Assembly: GCA_016783545.1 (NCBI GenBank)
Contig: JADHWJ010000005.1
Span: forward strand, 1,605 to 65,604
Length of the DNA stretch: 64,000 nt
Reading direction: 5' to 3'
From: Candidatus Aenigmatarchaeota archaeon
GTDB lineage: Archaea; Aenigmatarchaeota; Aenigmatarchaeia; QMZP01
Part shown: in pieces, positions 16,985 through 63,915 of the stretch
Layout of the letters: every line of letters begins with the position of its first letter
Numbering within the stretch: the first letter of the stretch is position 1
The notes under the pieces: model-generated
Told to the model about the DNA's origin: nothing
Seen by the model: only the letters and a program-made list of their open reading frames with translations
Database searches by the model: none
Position numbers and translations under genes: made by a program

Positions 16985-17090
16985 AGCCCCTGAGGCGATT
17001 TGAACGCCTAACCTACTGCTTACGAAGCAGTTGCTCTGGAACGCAAAACTGTGTAAAAAACAGAGTTTTGTACCGTTGAGCTACAGAGGC
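16985..17090 (-). tRNA. tRNA-Thr(CGU) with a ~34-nt intron at the D-loop/D-stem junction
   Basis: Manually assembled exons:
- Acceptor GCCTCTG/CAGGGGC (one G-U pair).
- D arm GCTC-AACGGTA[intron caaaactctgttttttacacagttttgcgttcca]GAGC.
- Anticodon arm ACTGC-TTCGTAA-GCAGT.
- T arm AGGCG-TTCAAAT-CGCCT.
- Discriminator U. Confidence 0.8.
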
Positions 17091-55917: not shown

Positions 55918-56136
55918 TGGTTTTAATATTTAAAACCAGTTGAAATCTTAATACGTTGCTCTCCAACTACTGGATCCTCAAAAAGAGCATATATGTCAAA
56001 AGCCTTGGAATCACATTCTGAATCTTCTACACGTAATACTGTAAATATTGGTACATCCATTCCTAGTTCACCCATACGTATGGATAGTCTAGTTTCACCC
56101 CAACCCTCTTTTATAATTGGTAAAAGTTATTTAAGC

Positions 56137-56934
56137 TTATTTAATAGTAGTTCCTAACCCCTCTTCACCGAGTATTGCTCTTTTTAGATTATCTTCTTTT
56201 AGACCACTTATTATCTGGGTCTTTATTCCATTTTCAGCAAGCTCTAGAGCCTGTTCAACCTTGTGTATCATTCCACCAGTAACGTCTATATTATCAGATC
56301 CAGACAAGCACTTTTTAATTTCATCAAAATTCTTTTTTGTTATTTCAGGTATTAACTTTGCGTCTGGATTTACAATAGGATCTGCTCTAAATACTCCACT
56401 AACATTTCCACAGAAAATAATCTTCTTTGCACCAAGCTTTATTCCTAAGAATCTTAGAATCTCTTCTGTAGAGATTATACAACAACCTTGAGCTAGATCA
56501 AGACCAACATCACCATAAGGAACGGTAATCATATCATATTCTAGTGCTTTTTCTATTGGTTTGGTATACCATTCTGTTATTTTTTTACCTTCAGCAATAC
56601 AAGAAGCTGAAGGCATTATATTAAATGGCTTTTCACCAACATCTAAGAGCGCTTGTACAAATATTCTATTCAGTCTTGCAGCATCGTTCTGGACTTCAGC
56701 AATTCCTCTATAACTTTCTTCATTTTTCACTCCATGTTGGGTTTGATACCTATGCGCTGACTGGTGTGGAAAACTGCCACCACCATGTCCAACTATAACC
56801 TTTGCTCCAGATTCTTTCTTAGCTTCATATATCTCTCTAGCCAATCTTTCAATTATTTCAGGTTTTGGAGTATATGGTTTAGACTTGTCAGTAATTAAAG
56901 AACCACCAAGCTTGATTAAAATAAGGTCTTCCAT
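56137..56934 (-). CDS. ipk: Isopentenyl phosphate kinase
   Basis: Amino-acid-kinase fold with LIKLGGSLITDK and VGHGGGSFPH. 265 aa. Sits in a mevalonate-pathway gene context. Confidence 0.8.
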   Translation of the reverse strand: MEDLILIKLGGSLITDKSKPYTPKPEIIERLAREIYEAKKESGAKVIVGHGGGSFPHQSAHRYQTQHGVKNEESYRGIAEVQNDAARLNRIFVQALLDVGEKPFNIMPSASCIAEGKKITEWYTKPIEKALEYDMITVPYGDVGLDLAQGCCIISTEEILRFLGIKLGAKKIIFCGNVSGVFRADPIVNPDAKLIPEITKKNFDEIKKCLSGSDNIDVTGGMIHKVEQALELAENGIKTQIISGLKEDNLKRAILGEEGLGTTIK

Positions 56935-56993
56935 AGACTATTAATAATTAGATATATTCTTATAAATTATGATTATTTTAGTACAATTGACGA

Positions 56994-58148
56994 TTATCCG
57001 AGCTCTTCAGAGACAGTGTGTATTATATTACTTAAAGAAAGATATCCACCATGCTCTACCTCTGCTTTTGCTAATTCAAAAAACCTATCATTTACTCTTA
57101 CTGAATCATCTGCTGTTGATGGATATAATGCATCAAACATACTATAATCCAGCCTTAATCTGGCTACCAAATTCTCTAATGATGAAAAGTAAGCTGTCTG
57201 CGGTTCACCCTCTTTTAAAGCTTCAATAGCAAGTTTTGATGATAATAATGCGTGTCCTATTCCACCACCACTTATAGTACTCTCCAAAAAATCTGCATCT
57301 CCCACTGGCAAAAAAAATTTATCAGTTAGCATATCTTGTGTTATTGGTCCTCCAGAACACATTAATTTTGAAAAAGTTCTTCCTTTCACAATTTTTACAT
57401 TACCAAAAACATTGTGTGGATTAGTATCAATAAATCTATTAAGATTATCACTACCTCTGGAAGCTTTCCATGGTTTAAAAACAACACCAACATTAGCTTC
57501 TACTAATCCAGTATCTGATTTTGGAAATATATAATAATATATTACATTCGGATCATCTGAAAGATATAATACTTTAGCATTTCCCAGTGCCTCAATATTT
57601 ACGTCTGTCATAGTATGTTGATAACCAGTTATGAAACAAATACCACTATCATCAGATACTATTCTTTTTGTTGCTTTACTGGTTCCCCATGCACAAAGAA
57701 CATAGGCACCTGGATGTATTTCTTTAATTTCATCAACGTCTTCTACCCCTTCTCCAAATCTTATTTCAGCACCATTTGTTTTAGCCAGATCTAGATAATA
57801 ATCTTCAAAAGCTGCTCTATTAATAAACATGTATGGATCTATATCACCATGAAGCTCACCTAATATTCCATTATCACTCATTCTTCCTAGAATAAGCTGA
57901 TTTGTACTATTTTCAATACAGGACTCTGGATCTTGTGGATCTATAAAAAGTCTAGCATTTTCTAGTTTTCTTTGCCAGATGCCTTCACCACATTTTCTTC
58001 CTCTAAGAGGATCAATATACCATTTATCTTCTGATATTTTTTCATACACAGTAACATCATATCCTTCTATAGATGCTAGATAAGCTGCATAAGATCCTGC
58101 AATACCTGCTCCTATAATTACAACTTTTGCCATAATAACCACTACCAA
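56994..58148 (-). CDS. FAD-dependent oxidoreductase, geranylgeranyl-reductase family
   Basis: Dinucleotide-binding VVIIGAGIAGSYAAYLA...VTVYEK. About 380 aa. Isoprenoid gene context. The probable start is MAKVVIIG. Confidence 0.7.
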   Translation of the reverse strand: MVVVIMAKVVIIGAGIAGSYAAYLASIEGYDVTVYEKISEDKWYIDPLRGRKCGEGIWQRKLENARLFIDPQDPESCIENSTNQLILGRMSDNGILGELHGDIDPYMFINRAAFEDYYLDLAKTNGAEIRFGEGVEDVDEIKEIHPGAYVLCAWGTSKATKRIVSDDSGICFITGYQHTMTDVNIEALGNAKVLYLSDDPNVIYYYIFPKSDTGLVEANVGVVFKPWKASRGSDNLNRFIDTNPHNVFGNVKIVKGRTFSKLMCSGGPITQDMLTDKFFLPVGDADFLESTISGGGIGHALLSSKLAIEALKEGEPQTAYFSSLENLVARLRLDYSMFDALYPSTADDSVRVNDRFFELAKAEVEHGGYLSLSNIIHTVSEELG

Positions 58149-58171
58149 TAGGCTATATTAAAAAAATGAGT

Positions 58172-58696
58172 TTAAATACGTTCTTCAAGAACTATTAATT
58201 TACTAGGCTTTTTGAGGTACCACTTCAGAATCTCCCTAGCATATAATGGGAACTTGCCTGGATTTTCCTTTAGAATTCTTTCTATATCAGATCTACTATG
58301 AAACTTTGCTTCTGAAACTTCGCTATCTTCTGGTTTAATTTCACCATCATATCTAGCTTCAAAAAGAACTGTTATCATAAAGTCTGTTCTCTCATAGACC
58401 ATTCTGAACTTTGCAAGTCTTTTCACTTCTAGTTTTATTCCAAGCTCTTCCAGGAGCTCTCGCTTTACTGTTTTCAGGTAACCATCTCCTGAATTAACAT
58501 GACCAGAAAGAGAGAGATCAAACTTTCCAGGATACTTGTCCTTTTTCATGCTTCTATGCTGAATGAGTATCTCATCTCTACTATTAAGAAGAATAACATG
58601 AACGCCTCTGTGCCATTGCTGAGAGTTGTGAATCTCTTTTCTAGAGGCTTTTCCTATTACTTTATCATTCTCATCTACAATATCTAGAAGTTCCAT
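58172..58696 (-). CDS. Nudix hydrolase (IDI-type-1-like fold)
   Basis: Nudix box GHVNSGDGYLKTVKRELLEELGI. WHRGVHVILLN resembles the IDI1 N-terminal strand. Confidence 0.8.
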   Translation of the reverse strand: MELLDIVDENDKVIGKASRKEIHNSQQWHRGVHVILLNSRDEILIQHRSMKKDKYPGKFDLSLSGHVNSGDGYLKTVKRELLEELGIKLEVKRLAKFRMVYERTDFMITVLFEARYDGEIKPEDSEVSEAKFHSRSDIERILKENPGKFPLYAREILKWYLKKPSKLIVLEERI

Positions 58697-58724
58697 AATA
58701 GAAATTAAAAAAGATTATTTAAAT

Positions 58725-59102
58725 TTACAAAACTTTAACATCGTTGCCATTAACCTCAATTTGAGCACCATCTTTTATCTGTTCTATATCTACCTTATCA
58801 ACGCATGGAATCTCAGAGATTATTGCTCCAACAGCAACAATTGTTTCGCACTCTTTGTTTACTATTGCTGCAGGTGCTTTTCCATTCTTTTTCAGTCTGT
58901 AAAGAACATAAGAGCCCACTGTAGAACCCTTTCCTTCTGGGAAAACTAATACCTTTCCTGTTATTGATTTACCTTCTAATGGATGACCTTTTTCTATTAC
59001 AACTCCTGTCTCAGGATCCACTCCACCATAGAAGCTTATTCCTTCTGCTGAGACAATTGCCTCTGCTTTTGTATTTCCCTTGAATATAATTCTTCCGTTC
59101 AT
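58725..59102 (-). CDS. Phosphomevalonate dehydratase small subunit (aconitase X swivel domain, DUF126)
   Basis: 125 aa with GGVDPETGVV and LVFPEGKGSTVGSYVLYRL. 4-nt overlap with the large-subunit gene. Confidence 0.8.
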   Translation of the reverse strand: MNGRIIFKGNTKAEAIVSAEGISFYGGVDPETGVVIEKGHPLEGKSITGKVLVFPEGKGSTVGSYVLYRLKKNGKAPAAIVNKECETIVAVGAIISEIPCVDKVDIEQIKDGAQIEVNGNDVKVL

Positions 59103-60271
59103 TTCAATGCCTCCTCAATACAACCTTCAATACTTGCTATCTTTGTCTTGAAATCGTTTTTTCCACTACCATAAAAACATCCTTTTGCTGAATCAGTGCA
59201 AAGAACTTTGAATCTTCCCTTTATTGGAGCAACCACACAACAGGTATCACAAGCAAACTTGACTCCAGAATCTTCTATTGTTCTTGTATATCCCATCTGG
59301 TCAGCTATTTTCTTAATAGGTCTTGCAGTTGTTATCCAGACCTCTTTGGTTACTTTCTTCCCTTCAAGAAGTTTTGCAACTAATGCAATCTCTCTTATAG
59401 AAGCATGAGGACAACCAATTGAGACAAAATCTGCGTCTTCGCCTGTATTCATTGATTCAATTGCCTTCTTTATCTCTTCTTCTGTAACTTCAATTGATTC
59501 TTCTGGGATATCTGTTTTGTTCGGTGTTATACCTTCAATATGATAGAGTGCTGTTCCACCATAAGTTGCTATTGAGGCTGAAAAAGACTTAAGTTCTTCC
59601 ACACTAGCCTCTTTTATTCCTTTTATGTAGGCTATTTTGTTTCCTATTTTTTCTCCAATAACCTTTCCTAGTGCACCAAAGTTCATTGTTCCTTTGATTT
59701 CAGTTTTAACATCAATAGCTATCTTAGCCTGTCTATTCTCTTCTAGATGATATCCATATTCAGGTGTGAATCCTGTCAGAGCAGCTGCAAGAGCTGAAGG
59801 TCCACCTTCCCTATTTGTTTTTGCACCAAGAACAGAGTTTGAAAAGCATACTGCAGAACTCTCTGCCCATGCTATATGTTCACCAAATCTTACAAGATTT
59901 CCAATAAAATATGGTGTGCATGTGCATGTTGCTATAATACCCATTTTTTTGAAAGCGTCAATAACTCTTCCCTGATTCTCTGCAAACTCTTTGCTTATTC
60001 CAAGAGCTTCCCAGTTCTCCATATCCATACCAGCAGGGTTTAGTGTTGTAAGAACCTTTACTTTTCCATCTTCTGCCATAGTACTTAGGAATTCTAATCC
60101 TGCTTCTCCAAGATTATCATAACTAACACCAGCTATCTGAACAGAATTTACAGGAATAAGTTTTTTTGCTCCGTATATCTCTCCAAGAGCTGTTAGAATT
60201 TCCATTGCTTTTTTCACAGCCTTTCCATGCTTTCCTTCAAGCATTTCCTTTTGTTCTGCTGTAAGTTCCAT
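59099..60271 (-). CDS. Phosphomevalonate dehydratase large subunit (aconitase X catalytic domain, DUF521)
   Basis: 390 aa. The N-terminus MELTAEQKEMLEGKHGKAVKKAMEIL is typical of DUF521. Conserved Cys residues are present. Adjacent to the DUF126 partner. Confidence 0.85.
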   Translation of the reverse strand: MELTAEQKEMLEGKHGKAVKKAMEILTALGEIYGAKKLIPVNSVQIAGVSYDNLGEAGLEFLSTMAEDGKVKVLTTLNPAGMDMENWEALGISKEFAENQGRVIDAFKKMGIIATCTCTPYFIGNLVRFGEHIAWAESSAVCFSNSVLGAKTNREGGPSALAAALTGFTPEYGYHLEENRQAKIAIDVKTEIKGTMNFGALGKVIGEKIGNKIAYIKGIKEASVEELKSFSASIATYGGTALYHIEGITPNKTDIPEESIEVTEEEIKKAIESMNTGEDADFVSIGCPHASIREIALVAKLLEGKKVTKEVWITTARPIKKIADQMGYTRTIEDSGVKFACDTCCVVAPIKGRFKVLCTDSAKGCFYGSGKNDFKTKIASIEGCIEEALK

Positions 60272-60272
60272 A

Positions 60273-61595
60273 TTAATCTAAAAAATCCTTAACATTGACT
60301 TTTGGGAATTCAGCCTTCTCAAAGTTCTTTCCTTCTGAAACAGTTAGCGGCTTTGTAAGATCAAATCCCATTTTATGGGTCATTTTTGTTCCTGGCTCTC
60401 CGCTTGGATCCAAGCTGGAACCAGGTTCCATTCCCCTTATAACAATGCGCTTATCTCCTTGGAATCTTGTGGCCATTGCCCACTCAACCTCCAAAGGATC
60501 CAGTATATTGATATCACTATCCACTACAAACGCATGCTTTAGGCTTGAATGCCCATCAAAGGCAGCCACTAGGGCTTTTTTGCCGTCATCCTCGTTTTGC
60601 TTGTCTATCTTTATTATAGAGTGTAACCATGAACATCCACCAGGGTTTATTGAGACATCAAGGCACTTGATTCCTGCTTCATTTACCTTTTTGAAAATAG
60701 TAGGTTCTCTTGGCATTCCCATCATAATTTTATGTTCTAATCCACCTGGCAATAATGCATACCAAATTGCATCCTTTCTATGAGTTATTTTTTTAACAGT
60801 GAAAACAGGCTCCTGCCTTACAATATCTTGTGTTTCTGTAAGATCAACAAAAGGACCTTCATTTGCTTTTTCTTCCAAAGAAATTGTTCCTTCAATAACA
60901 AACTCAGCATCAGCTGGTATCATAAGATCTGAAGTTTTTGCTTTAACAACTTTTAGAGGTTCTAATGCATTTGCTATCTCTAATTCATCTTTTCCCTTAT
61001 CTATACTTGTTGCTGCTGAAAGCAGAACATTGGCACCACATCCAACACAAACAGCTATGTCCATCTTTTTCTGGTCTTGTAAAAACTCATCAAAATGTCT
61101 TTTTGAAACAACTCTTACTGAGAATTTGTTTTTATCAATCTGCATCATTCTATGAAAATCAATGTTCTGTCCAAAATCAGGATGCTTTGCAATAACCACA
61201 CCAGAGCTTATGTAGTTTCCACCATCATTCTGGCAGTGGAATAGTATAGGAACTTTGTCTAGGTCCACTTCATCCATCTCAACTTCTTGACAGGGTGCTT
61301 CTTCTACTACTTCTGGTTTTGATGGATTACCTATAGCATCAATTATCTTTGGAATAAGCTCTTCTGGTTTTATTCCAAAATAAGAAGCAATCAATTCTTT
61401 TGAACCAAAAATATTACCAACAACACTGAAATCAGATTCCTTGATATCATTAAGTTTTAGCACTTTTGTCTCCAGTGCTTTTAGAAGTCCAGAAGCCTCA
61501 AGACGTCTTGAAACAGGTTTCTCTACATTAACAAGTTTTCCTTCCTTATCCAGTTTTTCAACAAACTCTCTGAATGACATAATTATCCACCCCAC
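60273..61595 (-). CDS. UbiD-family decarboxylase (anhydromevalonate phosphate decarboxylase candidate)
   Basis: 440 aa. UbiD N-terminus FREFVEKLDKEGKLVNVEKPVS. Located between the AcnX and UbiX genes. Confidence 0.85.
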   Translation of the reverse strand: MGWIIMSFREFVEKLDKEGKLVNVEKPVSRRLEASGLLKALETKVLKLNDIKESDFSVVGNIFGSKELIASYFGIKPEELIPKIIDAIGNPSKPEVVEEAPCQEVEMDEVDLDKVPILFHCQNDGGNYISSGVVIAKHPDFGQNIDFHRMMQIDKNKFSVRVVSKRHFDEFLQDQKKMDIAVCVGCGANVLLSAATSIDKGKDELEIANALEPLKVVKAKTSDLMIPADAEFVIEGTISLEEKANEGPFVDLTETQDIVRQEPVFTVKKITHRKDAIWYALLPGGLEHKIMMGMPREPTIFKKVNEAGIKCLDVSINPGGCSWLHSIIKIDKQNEDDGKKALVAAFDGHSSLKHAFVVDSDINILDPLEVEWAMATRFQGDKRIVIRGMEPGSSLDPSGEPGTKMTHKMGFDLTKPLTVSEGKNFEKAEFPKVNVKDFLD

Positions 61596-62170
61596 CTCTT
61601 GTATTCTTTGTTTTCAATTCCAAGGCAATCCAATATCTTTCCTATCATAAAGTTGTATATATCATTTATATTCTTTGGCTTTCCATAAAATCCCGGGCTT
61701 AATGGCATAATAATTGCTCCGTATATTGAGAGTTTCTTTAAATTATCTATTGTAGGTGTGCTTAATGGTGTTTCCCTTAAACAAACTATAAGCTTTTTCT
61801 TCATTTTCAGCATATTATCAGCACATCTGCTTATCAGTGTGGATGTATGAGCATGAACAATCTCTGAGACTGTTTTTATTGTAGAAGGAACAACTACCAT
61901 TGCATCTATTGGGAATGAACTGCTTGATACTGCAGCTGCCATATCATTGTTTGAGTAGATAAAAGAAGCATTTTTCCTAATCTCTTCGACTTTATGATCA
62001 GTTTCCAGCTCTATAACCTTCTCAGCCCATTCACTAAGTATAAGATGCGTTTCTACTCCTTTTTCTTTTAGTGTTTTCAGAAGTCCTATCCCATATTCTA
62101 CGCCTGATGCACCTGTAATAGCAACAATAAGTTTCATAAGGAATGTTTGGGAAAACTTTAAATATTTCAA
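61583..62170 (-). CDS. ubiX: UbiX flavin prenyltransferase (prFMN synthase)
   Basis: KLIVAITGASGVEYG and the flavoprotein fold. The likely true start is MKLIV at 62137. Confidence 0.9.
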   Translation of the reverse strand: MKYLKFSQTFLMKLIVAITGASGVEYGIGLLKTLKEKGVETHLILSEWAEKVIELETDHKVEEIRKNASFIYSNNDMAAAVSSSSFPIDAMVVVPSTIKTVSEIVHAHTSTLISRCADNMLKMKKKLIVCLRETPLSTPTIDNLKKLSIYGAIIMPLSPGFYGKPKNINDIYNFMIGKILDCLGIENKEYKRWGG

Positions 62171-62199
62171 CGAAAATAAGTTCGACTGATGTCGATTAT

Positions 62200-63132
62200 T
62201 TAACCAACACTAGTTCTTAATGTAGTAAATCCTTCATCTTCAAAGGCTTTTGCAACCTTTTCCTGAAGCTCTTTTCCTGGTGTTAGAGCAATCATATATC
62301 CACCACGACCTGTTCCTGTTAGCTTTGCACCCCAAGCACCATTATCCTTTGCTACCTTAACAAGGTGTTCTAATTCATCACAAGAAACACCAATTTTTTG
62401 AAGAAGTTCATGGTTTTTATCCATTAATTCTCCAACTCTTTTCCAATCACCACTATTTATTGCTTTCACTGCACTGTTATAAACTTCAATATATTCATCA
62501 GTAATTGCTTTGAACTGTTCTTCATCACTCTCTTTAAGTTTGAGAACATCTGCAACCACAACCTTTGTTTCTTGAGTAATACCAGTACTTACCATAACAA
62601 TTTCCACGGGTTTACTAACTGAAAGTTTTTCAATTTTATTAGGCCCGCCTTCTTTATTCTTTTCGAAGGTTATGAAACCACCGAAAACAGAACATGTATT
62701 GTCTATACCAGAAGGTGTTCCGCTTCCTGCTTCCTCTGCTAAATATGCTACTTTATTTATTTCTTCATCATTGAGATTGAGATTAAGTTTCTCATTAAAT
62801 GCTCTCGCTGTACTTGCAGCCAGAGCAGCACTTGCACCAACACCACTACTACAAAGCAAGTCACCAGCTAATGTTATTTTAATAGGGGTTTCTTCTGGGT
62901 TAATCTTGAAATAATTAAAGATTGCTTCAAACTGTCTCTTCATTTCTTCGCTCTTTTTTTCTCCATAACCAGGAACTTGTGGTCTATTATCAACTAATTC
63001 AAAACCTTTCTGACCATCTTCAAGCGTTGCTATGGTTTGACCAGATATTCCACTAGCTATACCAGGAAGATAATAAACTACAAAATGTTCTCCAAAAAGA
63101 ATGACTTTTCCAAAACCTTCTCCTTTAGACAT
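62200..63132 (-). CDS. mvk: Mevalonate kinase
   Basis: GHMP kinase motifs GKVILFGEHFVVY and SSGVGASAALAAS. 310 aa. Confidence 0.9.
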   Translation of the reverse strand: MSKGEGFGKVILFGEHFVVYYLPGIASGISGQTIATLEDGQKGFELVDNRPQVPGYGEKKSEEMKRQFEAIFNYFKINPEETPIKITLAGDLLCSSGVGASAALAASTARAFNEKLNLNLNDEEINKVAYLAEEAGSGTPSGIDNTCSVFGGFITFEKNKEGGPNKIEKLSVSKPVEIVMVSTGITQETKVVVADVLKLKESDEEQFKAITDEYIEVYNSAVKAINSGDWKRVGELMDKNHELLQKIGVSCDELEHLVKVAKDNGAWGAKLTGTGRGGYMIALTPGKELQEKVAKAFEDEGFTTLRTSVG

Positions 63133-63216: not shown

Positions 63217-63915
63217 ATGAATAAAAAGTTAAGGGAGATAAAACTTATCATTTTTGGGTTTGATGAAGTAATGATATCAGATAGTGAATATCATATAAAA
63301 ATCTCCAAAGATGTTCTTAATGATGCAAAGGCACATTGTACAACGAATGAACTGTATTCGTTATTTGAGCTTCCTGAATCCGAGATGATAGAAGCTGCAC
63401 TTGACAGGAAAGGTATCCGAGACAAAGAAACAATTGAAAAGACCATAAAAAGAAAAAGAGAGCTAATTGCAAAATCCTTAAATGGGAAAAATCTTCTTAC
63501 AAAAAACATAAAGGAAGCTATTCAGATTCTGAAAGATAATGACTATAAACTGGCATTATACTCAGAGCTTAGTAAAGACCAGATAACCAAGCATATAGAT
63601 TTCATTAAAATGTTTGATCTTGTTGTAACAGAAGCTGAGATAAAAGAACTTATAGAAAAGGGGCTGGATCCAAAACCGTCAGGTGATATTCTTTTCCATA
63701 TATCAGAACTCTTGGAAATTCCTCTGAAAAACACAGCATTTGTAGGAGGTACTGTTACTGACATGGTAGCTGCAAGAGCTGCAGAGATGCTTGCAATAGG
63801 TATTGGAGAGGAAAAAATAATGAGAAATATTTTGTTAGGGTATGCTGAATTCACATTTAAAAATGTATGGGAATTAGCAAAACTATTAACAAAAGAGGAA
63901 AATTTTAGAGTCTGA
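63217..63915 (+). CDS. HAD-superfamily-like hydrolase with a non-canonical motif I
   Basis: C-terminal FVGGTVTDMVAARAAEM (motif IV-like). Motif I reads FGFDEVM instead of DxDGT. Confidence 0.55.
   Translation: MNKKLREIKLIIFGFDEVMISDSEYHIKISKDVLNDAKAHCTTNELYSLFELPESEMIEAALDRKGIRDKETIEKTIKRKRELIAKSLNGKNLLTKNIKEAIQILKDNDYKLALYSELSKDQITKHIDFIKMFDLVVTEAEIKELIEKGLDPKPSGDILFHISELLEIPLKNTAFVGGTVTDMVAARAAEMLAIGIGEEKIMRNILLGYAEFTFKNVWELAKLLTKEENFRV

Follow-up and report, generated by a model that had tools for sequence, protein, structure and literature searches.

A predicted lower archaeal mevalonate pathway gene string with an inserted Nudix and reductase gene pair in a Candidatus Aenigmatarchaeota genome

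Introduction

Does a small-genome archaeon carry its own route to isopentenyl diphosphate (IPP), and what would two genes that belong to no standard step of that route contribute when they lie inside it? This question is raised by a gene string at positions 56137-63132 of a 64,000-nucleotide stretch of contig JADHWJ010000005.1 (positions 1,605 to 65,604 of the forward strand; assembly GCA_016783545.1) from a Candidatus Aenigmatarchaeota archaeon, the whole stretch being referred to below as the window. Eight intact open reading frames (ORFs), all co-oriented on the minus strand, encode, from first to last, a mevalonate kinase (MVK), the flavin prenyltransferase UbiX, a UbiD-family decarboxylase, the large and small subunits of an AcnX-type dehydratase, a Nudix protein, a geranylgeranyl reductase (GGR)-like flavoprotein and an isopentenyl phosphate kinase (IPK). 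The genome to which the window belongs comprises 886 kb in 18 contigs, with an estimated completeness of 70% and an estimated contamination of 0.11%, the window being located on its contig C5.

We conclude that the string very probably represents the lower half of the known archaeal mevalonate pathway, i.e., the one that proceeds via trans-anhydromevalonate phosphate, in a small-genome archaeon. The assignment is based on gene identity, active-site residues, operon conservation and phyletic profiles, and it is from these that enzyme activities and co-transcription are predicted.

Enzyme identities and the predicted pathway

A first-pass annotation of the window, made from the DNA letters and their ORFs, had placed eight co-oriented minus-strand genes in this region and named their families; the ORFs are indeed present and match the corresponding profiles. 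Curated family cut-offs were exceeded by five of the eight string proteins in profile searches. MVK reached 220.7 bits against TIGR00549 (cut-off 163), and shows 51-65% identity to its counterparts at the head of this cluster in relatives and in Iainarchaeota and Asgard archaea. The corresponding values are 209.7 bits for UbiX against TIGR00421 (cut-off 108.9), 368.9 bits for UbiD against TIGR00148 (cut-off 244.9), 203 bits for IPK against NF040647 (cut-off 120), and, for the AcnX small subunit, 184.8 bits against NF003046 (cut-off 163) and 129.2 bits against PF01989 (cut-off 27). The AcnX large subunit scored 504.9 bits against PF04412 (cut-off 31.5) and the Nudix protein 66.7 bits against PF00293 (cut-off 21.1), while the GGR-family flavoprotein, with 73.6 bits against TIGR02032, did not reach the cut-off of 158.8.

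The proposal that the dehydratase is an AcnX of type II, for which a profile search had been suggested, was borne out by the structural comparison. The large subunit has as its best match in the Protein Data Bank (PDB) the type II AcnX of Thermococcus kodakarensis (7cnr_A, E 8.5e-107), with type I hydroxyproline dehydratases reaching only ~5e-60. Its Cys118, Cys287 and Cys344 align with T. kodakarensis Cys110, Cys283 and Cys342, the ligands of the [4Fe-4S] cluster, and all ten contacts to mevalonate 5-phosphate (Gly48-Val49-Ser50, Asn53, Asn79, Glu129-Ser130-Ser131, Lys361 and Tyr365 in T. kodakarensis numbering) are retained, amounting to 13 of 13 residues. The roles of the cluster and substrate residues have been described for the T. 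kodakarensis enzyme (PMC8184944), and those of the cluster cysteines have been confirmed for the enzyme of Aeropyrum pernix (PMC10040528). The small subunit likewise finds its best PDB match in the same complex (7cnr_B, TK1248, E 8.4e-39) and retains the GKGST motif, which comprises the catalytic Ser and the substrate Thr. UbiD is 59-82% identical to cluster-linked archaeal homologues (640-820 bits), and its N-terminus reads MSFREFVE as compared to MTYRDFIG in Methanosarcina mazei, the latter having been read from a primer (PMC12547664).

In the predicted pathway, MVK would phosphorylate mevalonate, and the two-subunit, [4Fe-4S]-containing AcnX would dehydrate mevalonate 5-phosphate. UbiX would make prenylated flavin mononucleotide (prFMN), and the UbiD-family enzyme, once loaded with this cofactor, would decarboxylate the dehydration product to isopentenyl phosphate, which IPK would then convert to IPP. 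The presence of all four steps and of the cofactor enzyme UbiX, as claimed in the first-pass annotation, is supported by residue conservation, operon conservation and phyletic profiles.

Distribution of the two routes among relatives

The phyletic profile covers 41 genomes of the same order, i.e., the window's own genome (G000) and 40 relatives (G001-G040). UbiD was found in exactly the thirteen genomes that bear AcnX and in none of the 28 others, while IPK occurs in the thirteen AcnX genomes and in three more. A GHMP-type decarboxylase (TIGR01240) is encoded by 26 genomes, never together with AcnX, and two genomes possess neither route; the mutual exclusion of AcnX and GHMP decarboxylase is pronounced (Fisher p 6e-9, a value that ignores phylogenetic relatedness). 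The 70% complete assembly of the window's own genome contains no match to the TIGR01240 decarboxylase, and phosphomevalonate kinase (PMK) is also absent from it. One relative with a GHMP decarboxylase has a PMK as its neighbour (TIGR01220, 250 bits), and the decarboxylase of G001 lies above the cut-off for diphosphomevalonate decarboxylase (DMD), which together indicate the classical route. Within the window's own family, six genera possess the archaeal route and 17 carry a classical-route decarboxylase. Two gene complements were recorded separately: G018 encodes two weak decarboxylase paralogues plus IPK, possibly resembling the Thermoplasma situation, and G034 encodes a decarboxylase plus IPK, possibly resembling that of haloarchaea.

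Gene order in relatives and other lineages

The same genes are clustered in 12 of 12 AcnX-bearing relatives, contig breaks permitting, and the cluster is also found in Iainarchaeota, in Asgard archaea and on some Chloroflexota contigs. The arrangement is far beyond chance, and is conserved in all AcnX-bearing relatives and in other phyla. Two gene orders prevail. The first, MVK-UbiX-UbiD-AcnX large-AcnX small, in some cases followed by IPK, is common to the window's own genome, G007, G009 and two Iainarchaeum contigs. Among public sequences, the UbiD most similar to that of the window (82% identity) lies on a contig labelled Candidatus Aenigmatarchaeota, which corresponds to G007, a member of the same family. 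The second, MVK-UbiD-AcnX large-AcnX small-UbiX-IPK, is present in ten relatives, often with IDI2 (a type 2 isopentenyl-diphosphate isomerase) directly after it, and it recurs without IPK on Asgard contigs.

These observations contradict the first-pass annotation, which had taken such genes to be usually scattered in archaea; the literature describes mevalonate genes as usually clustered, and also reports the archaeal type of the pathway from most DPANN lineages (PMC11052028). The argument for interest made in that annotation is thus not supported. For M. mazei, phosphomevalonate dehydratase (PMDh) and anhydromevalonate phosphate decarboxylase (AMPD) carry consecutive gene IDs (PMC13198327). 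The cluster belongs to a widespread and known operon family in which it is nothing out of the ordinary, i.e., a standard archaeal mevalonate operon, and should therefore not be flagged as a rarity; its unusual part consists solely of the extra Nudix gene and its rare reductase partner.

Two contigs from metagenome-assembled genomes labelled Anaerolineaceae (L009 and L016) carry UbiD-AcnX large-AcnX small, with 58-62% identity to the window proteins, and their UbiD sequences branch next to Asgard sequences in the UbiD tree. These could represent archaeal-type mevalonate genes in Chloroflexota, or mis-binning.

Gene starts and spacing

Sequence reading and homologue lengths point to starts at 62137 for UbiX, 61580 for UbiD and 58133 for the GGR-like gene. 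With these, the intergenic gaps from MVK to IPK are 62, 2, 1, -4, 28, 38 and 59 nt, indicating that tight coupling is limited to UbiX-UbiD-AcnX large-AcnX small. Of two overlaps reported previously, the one at 59099-59102 is real, the AcnX small-subunit start lying on the large-subunit stop in an ATGA arrangement, while the one at 61583-61595 is a longest-ORF artefact arising from a GTG start, because the alignments with UbiD homologues, which are 430-441 residues long, begin at the ATG at 61580, the UbiX stop and the UbiD start thus being separated by 2 nt. The 28-62 nt spacers hold AT-rich boxes and T-runs. The 62-nt MVK-UbiX spacer holds a GC-containing hairpin of 5 bp at 62182-62195, with a T-rich tail after it, and T6-T7 runs follow the AcnX small-subunit and Nudix genes; all of these are possible internal transcript ends. 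A sigma-70 promoter scan was uninformative (30 sites versus 28.4 expected), this model being the wrong one for archaea.

Upper pathway and lipid precursor genes

The first-pass annotation had recommended a check of the genome for the upper pathway and for lipid genes, and this yielded thiolase, 3-hydroxy-3-methylglutaryl (HMG)-CoA synthase, HMG-CoA reductase, a geranylgeranyl diphosphate (GGPP) synthase, glycerol-1-phosphate (G1P) dehydrogenase and geranylgeranylglyceryl phosphate (GGGP) synthase. HMG-CoA reductase is encoded elsewhere in the genome, the HMG-CoA synthase gene is adjoined by those for thiolase and a DUF35-like protein, the prenyl synthase is of a short-chain/GGPP type, and the G1P dehydrogenase gene lies directly upstream of that for GGGP synthase. 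Two ordinary GGR genes are also present, one of which has an intein-like insert. The first-pass annotation had regarded a lack of the upper pathway and of prenyltransferases as a sign of a non-functional operon, whereas both are encoded here. Since the lower string is thus accompanied by genes for the upper steps and for ether-lipid assembly, including the GGRs, this archaeon is probably able to synthesise the isoprenoid precursors of its ether lipids by itself.

The interrupted GGR gene lies outside the window at C8:65393-67978 and encodes an 861-residue ORF, in which the GDAAG...GGG region is split by ~530 residues that include a LAGLIDADG-like segment. This insert looks like an intein, judging by its sequence; following its removal by hand, the remaining protein scores 174.5 bits against TIGR02032, which is above the cut-off.

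Alternative readings of the string

Several points weigh against the reading of the string as a complete and co-transcribed lower mevalonate pathway that feeds lipid synthesis. Neither IDI2 nor a canonical IDI1 was found in the assembled contigs of the 70% complete genome, and the only candidate there for a digeranylgeranylglyceryl phosphate (DGGGP) synthase is a UbiA-family match of 54 bits, a strong match of this type being absent. The nearest solved UbiD structure is that of the furandicarboxylate decarboxylase HmfF (6h6v), with only 235 bits, and some UbiD homologues carry the Joint Genome Institute (JGI) label '2,5-furandicarboxylate decarboxylase'; the probable membership of UbiD in the AMPD clade is based on strong but indirect evidence from genome context and phyletic profile. 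Finally, the string may be split into several transcripts, given the AT-rich sequence and T-runs of its longer spacers and the hairpin located after MVK.

The first group of these points favours dependence on a host for lipids, with a pathway that is either incomplete, lacking IPP isomerase and DGGGP synthase, or retained for small needs such as glycosylation carriers. The tiny genome would fit such a lifestyle, and a genomic survey stated that Aenigmarchaeota are unable to make membranes de novo (PMC8407114). That statement is older than the wide annotation of the AcnX/UbiD route, however, and the missing isomerase and DGGGP synthase constitute weak evidence because the genome is only 70% complete. 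The isomerase gap is most simply due to this incompleteness, since G007 and G009, the closest relatives sharing the operon, have canonical IDI1, while UbiA-family genes are present in 41 of 41 genomes of the order. Furthermore, the string genes are all intact with conserved catalytic residues, and the genome encodes two further GGRs in addition to G1P dehydrogenase and GGGP synthase. We therefore regard host dependence as improbable, and the probable isoprenoid autonomy of this DPANN-type lineage conflicts with the survey's statement on Aenigmarchaeota.

Considerably less probable still is the notion that UbiD/UbiX and AcnX serve another substrate, such as a furan or aromatic acid in the manner of HmfF or hydroxyproline in that of type I AcnX, and stand between MVK and IPK by chance. 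Apart from the HmfF match and the JGI label, it draws on the fact that the NCBIfam model for the AcnX large subunit represents only type I (hydroxyproline dehydratase), with the window protein scoring below its cut-off. The AcnX of the window, however, consists of two subunits, is far closer to the Thermococcus mevalonate 5-phosphate enzyme than to type I and keeps all substrate residues; UbiD and AcnX co-occur perfectly, adjoin MVK and IPK in each of the relatives and exclude the classical decarboxylase, and the genome otherwise lacks an enzyme for the decarboxylation step.

Mosaic ancestry and exchange of routes

A phylogeny had been suggested in the first-pass annotation as a means to detect operon transfer, and the trees obtained are mosaic. 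For UbiD and UbiX, the sequences of the window's own genome, G007 and G009 cluster with those of Iainarchaeota and Asgard archaea, and a fully supported split divides them from the same-family genomes G010, G022 and G031; monophyly of the family is rejected in approximately unbiased (AU) tests both for UbiD (p 2e-41) and for UbiX (p 2e-81). IPK, in contrast, is placed with G010, G022, G031 and family f2 rather than with G009 or Iainarchaeota, a clade of the G000 and G009 IPKs being rejected (p 8e-5). MVK is sister to an Iainarchaeum MVK with 98% SH-aLRT support, within a clade to which the MVKs of G024 and G014, two relatives with the classical route, also belong. As the gene trees agree neither with taxonomy nor among themselves, the string is regarded as a mosaic, in which, as judged from these trees, MVK, UbiX and UbiD appear Iainarchaeota-like and IPK native; this ancestry is derived from small gene trees. 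The joint of the mosaic coincides with the site of the inserted Nudix and GGR-like genes. The region shows no compositional sign of recent transfer, its GC content of 0.34-0.365 resembling that of the rest of the window.

It is very unlikely that the contig was binned wrongly and comes from another organism, for instance an Iainarchaeote, so that the cluster would not be this organism's: such an origin would explain why MVK, UbiX and UbiD group with Iainarchaeota rather than with several same-family members, but the gene order is shared with the same-family G007 and G009 (UbiD 73-82% identical), IPK groups with families f1/f2, the region does not differ from the window average in GC content, contamination is minimal and the contig is 69 kb long.

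Under one speculative scheme, the AcnX/UbiD/UbiX/IPK set and the classical PMK/DMD set would have been swapped repeatedly, by transfer, beside a constant MVK within one DPANN family. Approximately one-third of the species of the order have the archaeal route and two-thirds the classical one, never both, which makes the order a compact natural system for the replacement of a segment of an essential pathway.

The inserted Nudix and GGR-like genes

The Nudix and GGR-family labels given in the first-pass annotation are right at the level of family, while neither protein is a standard enzyme of the pathway. The nearest structures to the Nudix protein are YfcD and DR0079, followed by human IDI, and it falls below the IDI1 cut-offs (TIGR02150, 61.3 versus 105.8 bits; NF002995, 71 versus 127). 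In alignments with human IDI1/IDI2, its Ser63 aligns with the catalytic Cys of IDI1 (Cys67 in Escherichia coli), and a Met occupies what we take to be the position of Glu116 of the E. coli enzyme. The Nudix box is intact, reading G64-HVNSG-D-GYLKTVK-RELLEELGI against the consensus GX5EX7REUXEEXGU, with a single conservative E-to-D change. Homologues adjoin PMK, DMD, IPK or IDI2 in at least nine relatives with either pathway type. With Cys and Glu116 replaced, a complete Nudix box and homologues beside mevalonate genes, the protein is thus linked to isoprenoids as a predicted hydrolase, probably a diphosphate hydrolase with an isoprenoid diphosphate as its substrate rather than an isomerase, for which plant Nudix enzymes that hydrolyse prenyl diphosphates provide a precedent (PMC8857926).

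Two other roles were considered. The protein is not a suitable candidate for the missing IPP isomerase, as it is without the catalytic Cys and Glu116 and keeps the Nudix box of a hydrolase. A Nudix homologue does occur in 16 of 16 IDI2-less genomes (p 3e-5); nine of the IDI2-less genomes were checked and found to have separate canonical, Cys-containing IDI1 genes, which explains the association in these nine. Nor can it be a general supplier of dimethylallyl phosphate (DMAP) for UbiX, since relatives devoid of both UbiX and UbiD carry the same Nudix family next to PMK and DMD; it may act as a dedicated DMAP supplier in the window's own genome, but this role is not a general one.

The GGR-like flavoprotein belongs to a rare subfamily, with only eight homologues (37-47% identity) among 5.8 billion proteins and no orthologue in the 40 relatives. 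The GGR motifs RxCGEG, YxYxFPK...GVG, GDA and SGGGIG are invariant in this subfamily. Its homologues lie beside a trans- or cis-prenyl synthase in four of six readable contexts and, in two of the six, from unrelated genomes, beside an IDI-like, Cys-less Nudix gene; the order in these two is GGR-like, two cis-prenyltransferases, Nudix in one, and Nudix, GGR-like, polyprenyl synthase in the other. Because GGR-like homologues adjoin prenyl synthases and Cys-less Nudix genes, the pair looks like a recurring module on prenyl diphosphates, at least as far as gene neighbourhoods indicate.

Such a module, inserted between the dehydratase and IPK, would most likely tailor a prenyl diphosphate by hydrolysis and double-bond reduction rather than take part in IPP synthesis. 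More specifically, hydrolysis by the Nudix protein would turn a prenyl or polyprenyl diphosphate into the monophosphate, which the GGR-like reductase would then saturate; the outcome could be either a reduced lipid precursor or a glycan carrier that resembles dolichyl phosphate. Insertion of the module would have taken place at the recombination joint of the operon, and the module recurs in unrelated organisms with small genomes, next to prenyl synthases of the cis and trans types. The combined proposition, i.e., that the Nudix and GGR-like genes form a portable module for prenyl-diphosphate tailoring and that the step from phosphomevalonate to IPP is an exchangeable cassette within one DPANN family, is speculative and, in our estimation, somewhat doubtful as a whole. 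The pair nevertheless offers a lead to new isoprenoid-tailoring enzymes.

Separately, IDI1-like proteins that keep the Glu-x-Glu motif and have no catalytic Cys were observed at G011:C5:26450-27400 (L064), on L077/L078 (4737-5288 and 2797-3348) and on L081 (42-593). They show the motifs NTASSHP, LTNSHP and SITSHP, are in some cases encoded beside GGR-like and prenyl synthase genes, and may constitute a non-canonical IDI-like subfamily.

Annotated features and neighbouring genes

The features of the string and the adjacent gene are listed in Table 1. A hydrolase of the haloacid dehalogenase (HAD) family is encoded divergently from MVK, and HAD genes were also observed inside or beside the mevalonate clusters of G001, G024, G025, G029, G034 and one Iainarchaeum contig; this suggests a recurrent phosphatase partner of mevalonate clusters, the HAD hydrolase of the window being a possible accessory phosphatase as judged by family and position. 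At the other end, the 440-nt spacer downstream of IPK contains a 50-residue ORF (MGELGMDVPIFTVL...) at 55923-56075, co-oriented with IPK on the minus strand and matching no family. Elsewhere in the window, at 16985-17090 on the minus strand, a 106-nt match to the Rfam tRNA model (56.6 bits, full model) is missing from the ARAGORN output, and is probably an intron-containing archaeal tRNA.

Table 1. Genes of the string and its divergent neighbour in the window, with family matches
Feature	Position	Strand	Family match or remark
Mevalonate kinase (MVK), 310 aa, first gene of string	62200..63132	-	TIGR00549; GHMP N and C domains
UbiX flavin prenyltransferase, 184 aa from ATG at 62137	61583..62137	-	TIGR00421, PF02441
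UbiD-family decarboxylase	60273..61580	-	TIGR00148; UbiD_N, UbiD and UbiD_C domains
AcnX large subunit, 390 aa, predicted phosphomevalonate dehydratase	59099..60271	-	PF04412
AcnX small (swivel) subunit, 125 aa	58725..59102	-	PF01989, NF003046
IDI-like Nudix protein, 174 aa	58172..58696	-	PF00293
Divergent GGR-family flavoprotein, 379 aa, rare subfamily	56994..58133	-	TIGR02032 (below cut-off)
Isopentenyl phosphate kinase (IPK), 265 aa, last gene of string	56137..56934	-	NF040647, PF00696
HAD-family hydrolase, divergent from MVK	63217..63915	+	PF13419, PF00702

Comparison with known systems

The closest known system is the pathway of A. pernix and M. mazei, composed of MVK, PMDh (AcnX type IIb), AMPD (UbiD family), UbiX and IPK, with which the window shares the protein families, the number of subunits and the Cys ligands of the [4Fe-4S] cluster. 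As in M. mazei, the decarboxylase gene adjoins the dehydratase genes, and, as in both organisms, PMK and a GHMP decarboxylase are absent. Unlike in these organisms, all five predicted functions and two extra genes are combined in one co-oriented string.

At the level of the individual enzymes, the 13 ligand and substrate residues and the GKGST motif are shared with the type II AcnX of T. kodakarensis (7CNR/7CNS; large subunit DUF521, small subunit TK1248), from which the large subunit of the window differs by a nine-residue insertion (residues 83-91). With HmfF (6H6V), the UbiD of the window shares the full-length UbiD architecture and a prFMN-dependent family, while it scores 235 bits to HmfF as compared to 640-820 bits to the cluster-linked archaeal homologues and is found in a mevalonate rather than a furan-catabolism context.

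The IDI-like Nudix fold is common to the Nudix protein of the window, IDI1, YfcD (2FKB) and DR0079 (1Q27). As in IDI1, His residues are present that align with His25, His32 and His69, and the neighbourhood is one of isoprenoid genes, whereas the Ser in place of Cys67, the Met presumably in place of Glu116 and the full hydrolase Nudix box set it apart from that enzyme. The GGR-like protein, finally, shares the FAD Rossmann motif and the RxCGEG, YxYxFP...GxG, GDA and GGGIG motifs with the GGR family (TIGR02032), which includes the digeranylgeranylglycerophospholipid reductases; unlike ordinary GGRs, it is only 28-32% identical to the GGRs of relatives and belongs to a subfamily of approximately nine known members, mostly encoded beside prenyl synthases.

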